A DNA stretch of 64,000 nt from Candidatus Omnitrophota bacterium (GTDB taxonomy: Bacteria; Omnitrophota; Gorgyraeia; Zapsychrales; Zapsychraceae): assembly GCA_022703565.1 (NCBI GenBank), contig JAKLDK010000001.1:8017-72016 (forward strand), written 5' to 3'. How positions within the stretch are numbered: the stretch's first letter is position 1; each line of letters begins with the position of its first letter. Shown here in pieces: positions 27,315 to 29,906 of this stretch. Under the pieces are notes generated by a model. It saw only the letters and a program-made list of their open reading frames with translations, was not told the DNA's origin and ran no database searches. Both the position numbers and the translations under genes were made by a program.

Positions 27315-27635
27315 ATGGCAACAATTGATGATTTTAGAAAAATAGAGCTTGTGATCGGAGAGGTAAAGGAAGTTAAAGACCATCCCAATGCCGATAAGCT
27401 TTTTGTGGTAAAAGTTGATACGGGAAAAGAAATAAGGCAAGTAGTCGCCGGCATAAAAAAGTCTTATAAGCCGGAAGATTTAGTTGGTCGCCAAGTTGTT
27501 TTGGTCAGCAATTTGGACCCGGCTGTAATTAGAGGCGAAGAATCGCAAGGAATGATTTTAGCGGCGTCTGATGAGAATGGCATTTGTGTTTTGCAGCCGG
27601 ATAAAAAGGTTACCTTAGGTAGTATTGCCAAATAA
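27315..27635 (+). CDS. tRNA-binding domain protein (CsaA/Trbp111/EMAP-like)
   Basis: IELVIGEVKEVKDHPNADKLFVVKVDTG...VVAGI...VLVSNL matches the OB-fold tRNA_bind (Myf) domain; 106 aa. Confidence 0.75.
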   Translation: MATIDDFRKIELVIGEVKEVKDHPNADKLFVVKVDTGKEIRQVVAGIKKSYKPEDLVGRQVVLVSNLDPAVIRGEESQGMILAASDENGICVLQPDKKVTLGSIAK

Positions 27636-27714: not shown

Positions 27715-28203
27715 ATGTATAAAGATTTTCCGGAATTTGTAACATCGGAGGCTTGCCTTCAATGTGACGGCTGCTGCCGATTCTCGGACGATAAAAGTGT
27801 ATGGCGTCCGAAAGTTGGCAAAGAAGAACTGACGGATAGCATAAGGAACGATATTGGCGAAGAATTTTGTTTAAGGACTATTGACAAAAACAATCAAGCG
27901 CAATGTGTTTTCTTCCGTGAAACAAATAACAAATGTTCCATTTATCCGAATCGGCCTTTTGACTGCCGGCTTTATCCGTTTGTTTTGCTAAAAGAAAAGA
28001 ATAGGCGATTTTTATCTGTGCATAAAATGTGCCCGTATGTTTCTTCTAAACATAATTCTGAAGAATTTAAAAAGGCTGTTTGCGAAATAAAAAAGTATAT
28101 GAATGGTAAAAGTATAAAAATTTTTGTTTCTCAGAACCGACACCTCTTCGGTGAATATGTCAACTACAGAAACGAATTAGAAGTGTTATTTGAAATCGAA
28201 TAG
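27715..28203 (+). CDS. YkgJ-family Cys-cluster protein (putative Fe-S/Zn-binding, UPF0153)
   Basis: CLQCDGCC plus CVFF...CSIYPNRPFDCRLYPF, characteristic of the YkgJ CxxCxxCC family. Confidence 0.65.
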   Translation: MYKDFPEFVTSEACLQCDGCCRFSDDKSVWRPKVGKEELTDSIRNDIGEEFCLRTIDKNNQAQCVFFRETNNKCSIYPNRPFDCRLYPFVLLKEKNRRFLSVHKMCPYVSSKHNSEEFKKAVCEIKKYMNGKSIKIFVSQNRHLFGEYVNYRNELEVLFEIE

Positions 28204-29094
28204 ATGCCAAAAGATATTTTAAAAGAAAAGGCGTTGGTTGAGAAATATTTAAAGAAGCACGAGCATAGCTTAGCTGCTTTTTCTTTTGTTAATATTTTTA
28301 TATGGCAGGACTATTTTGCTTTTGATGTTAGAGAACTCGACGGGAATTTATGTGTTTTTGCGAAGAATATTGTCGGCGAATTCTTATATTTGCCGCCTTT
28401 GGGTAATTCTATCAGCCCAAAAGCGGTCGAAGTTTCTTTTGAGCGGATGAGAAAGAATAATAAGAATAGTGGTGTTAGCCGAATTGAGAATTTTGCAGAC
28501 ACAACGCTATTTGATGTAAATCAATATAAGATTTATAAAAAGAGTGAAGACTACATTTATCTTTCCAGCGATATTGCCGATTTGAAAGGGAATGCTTATA
28601 AGTCGAAACGCTCTTCATGTAATCAATTTGTTAAAAATAATAATTATGAGCTTGCGAGTTATGAGGATTCGATGAGGGGCGAGTGTTTGGCCTTGTATCA
28701 AAAGTGGGCAAGGGGAAGAAAGAGTAGCTATTCCGACGGAGTATATCAACAAATGATTGATGAGAATGAAAAAGTACATTCGCTTGTTTTCGATTATCAC
28801 CAGGAGCTTAATATGTTTTCCCGGGTGGTGTTGATTGCCGGGAGAATTGAAGGCTATACTTTCGGATATGAAATAAATAAAGATATGTTTTGTATTTTGC
28901 TTGAGGTCACAAATCTGAAGATAAACGGATTGGCGACATTCATATTTTCTAGCACTTGCCAATTGTTAGGCAAAAAATATAAATATATTAATGCGATGGA
29001 TGATTTTGGGATGGATAATATTAAAAAAGTTAAGATGTCTTTTCACCCGGTAAAATTATTGCCGGCCTATAACATGACAGAAAGTAAATGTTAA
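28204..29094 (+). CDS. DUF2156 / MprF C-terminal-domain-like protein (putative aminoacyl-tRNA-dependent aminoacyltransferase)
   Basis: A 296-aa standalone protein with size and motif distribution consistent with the tandem-GNAT fold of aminoacyl-PG synthase C-domains and VlmA-type transferases. Assigned by pattern only. Confidence 0.35.
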   Translation: MPKDILKEKALVEKYLKKHEHSLAAFSFVNIFIWQDYFAFDVRELDGNLCVFAKNIVGEFLYLPPLGNSISPKAVEVSFERMRKNNKNSGVSRIENFADTTLFDVNQYKIYKKSEDYIYLSSDIADLKGNAYKSKRSSCNQFVKNNNYELASYEDSMRGECLALYQKWARGRKSSYSDGVYQQMIDENEKVHSLVFDYHQELNMFSRVVLIAGRIEGYTFGYEINKDMFCILLEVTNLKINGLATFIFSSTCQLLGKKYKYINAMDDFGMDNIKKVKMSFHPVKLLPAYNMTESKC

Positions 29095-29906
29095 TGACAG
29101 GGGTTAATGAAACAGAATTCTTCTTTTTCGATGTGGAAACAACTGGTTTAGCGCCGGATTTTGGAGATAGAGTGGTTGAGTTTGCGTTTATCCGTACGCT
29201 CGGGAAGAAGGAAATAGAACGGTTTGAAACGCTAATAAACCCAATGCGTCCGATTTCTTGGCAAGCTTCTTTAGTTAACGGAATAACGGATACGATGGTG
29301 TCTTCTTCGCCACAGGCCGGCGACGTAATAAATAGAATTCTCAAGGGATTGCGCGGAGCGTGCTTGGTTGGGCATAATCTAAGATTTGATTTGAACTTTT
29401 TAAAAGCCGAATTCGCTCATGCCAAAAAAGAATTTATTTTAGAGGAGCATACAATCGATACAGTCAAATTATCTCGCGGGATATTGCCGCAATTGGGGCG
29501 GTATTCTTTGTCTCATGTTGCGTCATTCTTGGGAATCAACGACGCGCAGAAACATCGGGCTATGGCCGATGTTGTTATGACTAAAGATATCTTTTTCCGA
29601 TTATTGGAAATCGCGAAAGAGAAGAATATCGAATCTTTAGCGCAGATAATAAACTTGTTTGGCACGCAAAAAACCATTCGGCAGCGTAAAAAAGAAAAAG
29701 AAGAAATTATTAATAAAGCGATTAAGTCAAATTTTGATGTTGAAATTATATATTTTGGTACAACCAACGGAGCAACTGTTCGAAAGGTAAAGCCGCTCGA
29801 TATTTGTGGTTCGGGTAGAGAAAAGGCAATGATCGGTTTTTGCCACTTGCGCAATGAAGAGAGAAGTTTTAGGCTGGATAGGATAATTCAGGTAAAAGCG
29901 GGTTAA
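29088..29906 (+). CDS. DEDDh 3'-5' exonuclease (DnaQ/RNase T-like) fused to a C-terminal WYL domain
   Basis: Exo I FFDVETTGL, Exo II VGHNLRFDLNFL, Exo III HRAMADV. The C-terminal ~90 aa (VEIIYFGTTNGATVRKVKPLDI...AMIGFCHLRNEERSFRLDRIIQVK) match the WYL domain, including the RxFRLDRI hallmark. Confidence 0.7.
   Translation: MLMTGVNETEFFFFDVETTGLAPDFGDRVVEFAFIRTLGKKEIERFETLINPMRPISWQASLVNGITDTMVSSSPQAGDVINRILKGLRGACLVGHNLRFDLNFLKAEFAHAKKEFILEEHTIDTVKLSRGILPQLGRYSLSHVASFLGINDAQKHRAMADVVMTKDIFFRLLEIAKEKNIESLAQIINLFGTQKTIRQRKKEKEEIINKAIKSNFDVEIIYFGTTNGATVRKVKPLDICGSGREKAMIGFCHLRNEERSFRLDRIIQVKAG

Follow-up and report, generated by a model that had tools for sequence, protein, structure and literature searches.

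A DnaQ-like exonuclease with a C-terminal WYL domain in Omnitrophota, and its orthologues with a predicted clamp-binding tail

The 64-kb stretch of Omnitrophota DNA analysed here (the window) encodes a protein that joins a DEDDh exonuclease domain of the DnaQ-like/RNase_T superfamily to a C-terminal WYL domain (Table 1), and a subclade of Omnitrophota appears to have exchanged the WYL module of this gene for a predicted C-terminal beta-clamp-binding peptide. The fusion itself is a widespread and already catalogued architecture, and the WYL-less orthologue with a clamp motif is new here. With moderate confidence, we interpret the protein as a noncanonical DnaQ-type DNA exonuclease of replication or repair, in which the WYL domain would bind ssDNA and so anchor the enzyme or direct it to its target, much as in Pif1-WYL helicases.

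Table 1. Coordinates of the exonuclease-WYL gene, its domains and motifs, and the genes upstream of it
Feature	Positions in the window	Strand	Remarks
tRNA_bind (PF01588) gene	27315..27635	+	First member of a gene string conserved in Omnitrophota
CxxCxxCC (PF03692) gene	27715..28203	+	Same conserved gene string
LPG_synthase_C (DUF2156)-like gene	28204..29094	+	Upstream gene; adjacency kept in Omnitrophota
Exonuclease-WYL CDS	29088..29906	+	272 aa; open reading frame present; stop TAA at 29904-29906
DEDDh 3'-5' exonuclease domain (Pfam RNase_T, aa 13-169)	29124..29594	+	
Exo I motif D15-V-E17	29130..29138	+	D and E invariant in 38/38 genomes
Exo II motif N97-L-R-F-D101	29376..29390	+	N and D invariant in 38/38 genomes
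Exo III motif H156-R-A-M-A-D161	29553..29570	+	Holds the 'h' of DEDDh; H in 35/38, D in 38/38 genomes
Two-helix linker, exonuclease to barrel (aa 184-214)	29637..29729	+	AF2 helices at 184-191 and 194-214
WYL domain (Pfam aa 207-270)	29706..29897	+	Five-stranded barrel at aa 218-271

Exonuclease domain and active site

The open reading frame exists as originally predicted, and the predicted DnaQ-like identity of its N-terminal domain was confirmed by a Pfam RNase_T (PF00929) match of 108.5 bits against a cut-off of 24 (E=6.5e-31). This domain has an RNase H-like exonuclease fold, and an alignment with E. coli epsilon (1j53) places D15, E17, D101, H156 and D161 on its catalytic motifs, so that all three Exo motifs are intact, including the catalytic histidine, as had been proposed. 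The protein is thus a member of the DEDDh superfamily, and 3'-5' activity is predicted for it. The reading frame has another possible start, an ATG at 29094 that shares bases with the stop codon of the upstream gene (TAATG); translation from it would give a product of 270 aa, the form in which the protein is found as database entry P0001 (100% identical). The AF2 model of the protein is confident overall (pLDDT 92.7, pTM 0.89), and the second helix of the linker is the conserved pre-WYL helix, aligning with that of PafBC and Pif1.

The nearest sequence and structure matches of the exonuclease domain are DNA exonucleases, namely PolC, DinG, epsilon and ExoX; the window protein has neither a polymerase nor a helicase body like those attached to the exonuclease domains of PolC and DinG. 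It is from this similarity of the exonuclease domain only that DNA, rather than RNA, is the presumed substrate. The DinG-type enzyme of S. aureus and other DEDDh domains can also cleave RNA, and the protein could in principle be an RNase T/Orn-like 3'-5' exoribonuclease of tRNA, rRNA or short RNAs, with a WYL domain that binds ssRNA like Hfq/Sm. We consider this quite unlikely, given that no RNase T/Orn model is among the best 25 NCBIfam matches, that a beta-clamp-type motif in syntenic orthologues (described below) points to DNA replication and repair, and that tRNA-related neighbours of the gene are confined to Omnitrophota, with hemA-hemC or unrelated genes adjoining it in other phyla.

The similarity to epsilon also raises the possibility of a true replicative proofreader, a Pol III epsilon subunit stably bound to DnaE with its WYL domain on the template strand. 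Every NCBIfam equivalog cut-off for epsilon was missed (TIGR01406, 92 versus 222.7; PRK05711, 82.7 versus 196; PRK06310, 100.2 versus 236; PRK06309, 81.6 versus 245). The match to PRK06063, which we take, on model length only, to represent the mycobacterial-type DnaQ, likewise scored below threshold (83.9 bits; cut-off 389). Compared with E. coli epsilon, the protein lacks both the alpha-binding C-terminal tail, the C-terminus being a folded WYL barrel, and the conserved internal clamp motif. A segment at the position of the epsilon clamp motif, QIINLF (aa 186-191), was weighed as a clamp motif and rejected: its glutamine varies, it lies within a confidently modelled helix, and it is common to the 206-aa orthologues described below. 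Neither dnaE nor a second DnaQ-like gene was found within the 64-kb window. Most bacteria proofread by the PHP domain of DnaE, with noncanonical DnaQ as an accessory (PMC11348249). A role as the true replicative proofreader appears decidedly improbable for this protein.

That mycobacterial noncanonical DnaQ resembles the window protein in being an epsilon-family DEDDh exonuclease with a C-terminal accessory module, encoded by a chromosomal housekeeping gene (PMC11348249). Its accessory domain is a BRCT domain, whereas that of the window protein is WYL, with no BRCT match in Pfam, and the window protein has no C-terminal clamp motif of the kind found in mycobacterial DnaQ. The protein is also not a member of the Exonuclease I (SbcB) family, whose second domain has no detectable sequence relationship to its own and which has a further C-terminal domain.

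The WYL domain and its candidate ligand

The C-terminal domain matched the Pfam WYL model (PF13280) at 38 bits against a gathering threshold of 21.8 (E=1.7e-9), and the WYL domain of PafBC was matched by the WYL profile at E=1.2e-21. The region forms an Sm/SH3-like five-stranded barrel with a preceding helix and carries RSFRLDRI at residues 259-266 (nt 29862-29885); the WYL assignment made earlier from this motif therefore holds, and the C-terminal region is not a clamp- or alpha-binding tail of the epsilon type. Alignments of the protein with WYL structures in the PDB cover the WYL region only. Transcription factors with a wHTH-WYL-WCX arrangement (PafBC, DriD, CapW and BrxR) have an HTH and a WCX domain that the window protein lacks, its N-terminus being the exonuclease and its end lying 2 aa past the Pfam WYL match, and the output is that of a nuclease rather than transcription.

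Among the WYL residues of the protein (Y222, R232, C252-H253-L254, R255, R259, R262 and R265), those of the basic groove (R232, C252, R255, R259, R262 and R265) are all in place and are kept across the family, which fits the WYL pattern of four or five arginines, often with a cysteine (PMC4012209). R232, R255, R259, R262 and R265 align with R464, R491, R495, R498 and R501 of DdPif1 (DdPif1 residues from PMC9964779), and all five ssDNA-binding arginines of the PafBC, DriD and Pif1 WYL domains are found in the exonuclease-WYL protein. Judged from these aligned residues, the ligand of the WYL barrel is most likely a single-stranded nucleic acid, with ssDNA as the foremost candidate. Other WYL ligands have been reported, including ssRNA for the accessory protein of Cas13d (as cited in PMC6789036) and c-di-GMP, for which a sensing WYL factor exists (PMC11880434).

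Among enzyme-linked WYL domains, the closest parallel is provided by Pif1-WYL helicases (TePif1; DdPif1, 8bnv; SsPif1, 8bns), which likewise carry a C-terminal WYL domain without WCX on a DNA-processing enzyme. The two WYL domains have much the same GFC.[LM]R.[ED]ER.FR[IL]DRI motif and share the five arginines that contact ssDNA, and each of the two families has orthologues with WYL and orthologues without it. The catalytic partner in Pif1 is an SF1B helicase and not an exonuclease, and the homology is confined to the WYL region. Two reports (bioRxiv 10.1101/163188; PMC9964779) present the Pif1 WYL domain as an accessory module for binding ssDNA.

WYL-less orthologues, distribution and genomic context

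In many Omnitrophota the same syntenic slot is occupied by a 206-aa orthologue that has no WYL domain and an intact active site. This orthologue ends in QASLF or QESLF (Q[AES]SLF), which fits the beta-clamp-binding consensus and is like the clamp-binding Q[Y/L]ALF of mycobacterial DnaQ (PMC11348249). A C-terminal Qxx[LM]F was found in 49/54 syntenic WYL-less orthologues, a sample of closely related sequences (80-89% identical), and was absent from 63 of 64 WYL forms and from the window protein. Bootstrapped NJ trees place the 206-aa clade inside the WYL forms. We infer that the WYL module was probably exchanged for the predicted clamp-binding peptide within one Omnitrophota subclade; from the motif match, the QASLF tail would be expected to bind the clamp. 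As WYL is replaced by a predicted clamp tail while the active site stays intact, a targeting or tethering function would fit better than an obligatory on/off sensor.

Ligand-controlled degradation, as originally predicted, is accordingly not the best-supported reading. In that reading WYL would act as an allosteric sensor, and the exonuclease would stay inactive, or active, until a signal arrives; the signal might be ssDNA that builds up after damage, ssRNA, or a second messenger of the nucleotide type. All characterised WYL transcription factors are switched by a ligand on the WYL domain (PafBC, PMC11804915; DriD; CapW), there is the WYL factor that senses c-di-GMP, and purifying selection acts on the residues of the groove. 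The pTM of the AF2 model suggests a fixed packing of the two domains, an arrangement that would be equally suited to autoinhibition. However, besides having no HTH, the protein lacks WCX, the partner of WYL in the ssDNA tunnel of PafBC (PMC11804915), and the nearest enzyme-linked WYL domain, that of Pif1, is described as a binding accessory and not a switch. Moreover, orthologues in the same slot keep their active site without WYL, which indicates that the cell tolerates the nuclease without it, and the genomic context is one of housekeeping rather than stress or defence. We regard gating as unlikely; if true, it would give the cell a response to damage or stress that operates after translation.

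An architecture search brought up over 60 proteins from many phyla that share this Pfam domain arrangement, and the exonuclease and WYL fusion was found in at least nine bacterial phyla; the fusion is thus not rare. With a WYL-only profile against a set of 5.8 billion proteins, nearly all matches were short fragments or stand-alone WYL proteins. The combination had been put forward as unrecognised and uncharacterised, of which only the second part stands: no experimental study and no characterised protein with this fusion was found in the literature, but a fusion of WYL with a 3'->5' exonuclease had already been listed by Makarova et al. 2014 (PMC4012209).

The recurrent annotated neighbours of the fusion gene are housekeeping genes, both in the window and in 38 loci from at least nine phyla. 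Within Omnitrophota, synteny is kept at protein identities of 35-45%, which indicates vertical inheritance. Because their stop and start codons overlap, the LPG_synthase_C-like gene and the exonuclease gene are probably co-transcribed and translationally coupled; a scan for promoters and terminators gave no excess over shuffled expectation and lends no support to particular operon boundaries.

These neighbourhoods also bear on an anti-phage or abortive-infection effector, in which a nuclease with WYL as its sensor would destroy nucleic acid of the invader or of the cell itself. The surroundings of defence systems are enriched in WYL domains (PMC4012209), and single domains of the protein are matched by PADLOC models of the candidate system PDC-S48 and of Cas-associated DEDDh and WYL proteins. 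For PDC-S48, the match is limited to the exonuclease domain (profile positions 4-174 of 411), recognisable defence genes were found in 0/38 neighbourhoods, the synteny points to vertical inheritance, and the fusion was not found in the phage and plasmid collections searched. After the PADLOC, 38-locus neighbourhood, phage and plasmid searches we rejected this reading, which is highly improbable, and the gene appears to represent neither a new defence system nor a new principle of biochemistry.

Proposed role and significance

In the anchoring model that we prefer, the product of a chromosomal, vertically inherited gene would work on DNA 3' ends, with nucleotides removed by two-metal catalysis in the DEDDh domain (D15, E17, D101, H156 and D161). 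The arginine-lined WYL groove (R232, R255, R259, R262 and R265) would grip single-stranded nucleic acid, most likely ssDNA, and so bring the nuclease to ssDNA-containing replication or repair intermediates (gaps, flaps and 3' tails, for example); this anchoring may raise affinity or processivity. In Pif1 helicases the WYL domain is credited with this same role, and the SH3-like anchor of Exonuclease I offers an analogy. Targeting in one subclade of Omnitrophota would be taken over by the predicted beta-clamp-binding peptide in place of WYL.

A more far-reaching version of gating, in which an autoinhibited exonuclease is released by ssDNA or a nucleotide at the WYL domain and forms the first enzyme-level, non-transcriptional ssDNA sensor, is in our view unlikely. 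If true, it would provide an immediate, post-translational DNA-damage response in bacteria, and the WYL domain and the beta-clamp peptide would be interchangeable licensing devices for a potentially mutagenic or genotoxic nuclease, which would thereby be confined to legitimate substrates.

Recent work has established WYL as an ssDNA sensor in transcription factors, and Pif1 helicases are the only case in which the role of an enzyme-fused WYL domain has been studied. At about 270 aa, the widespread DnaQ-WYL protein offers a simple system in which to ask whether WYL tethers a substrate or switches catalysis, and the swap between WYL and a clamp-binding-type peptide in one gene slot constitutes a natural experiment. 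The swap links the family to replication and repair and gives a testable model for how accessory, noncanonical DnaQ proteins (cf. PMC11348249) may be targeted.

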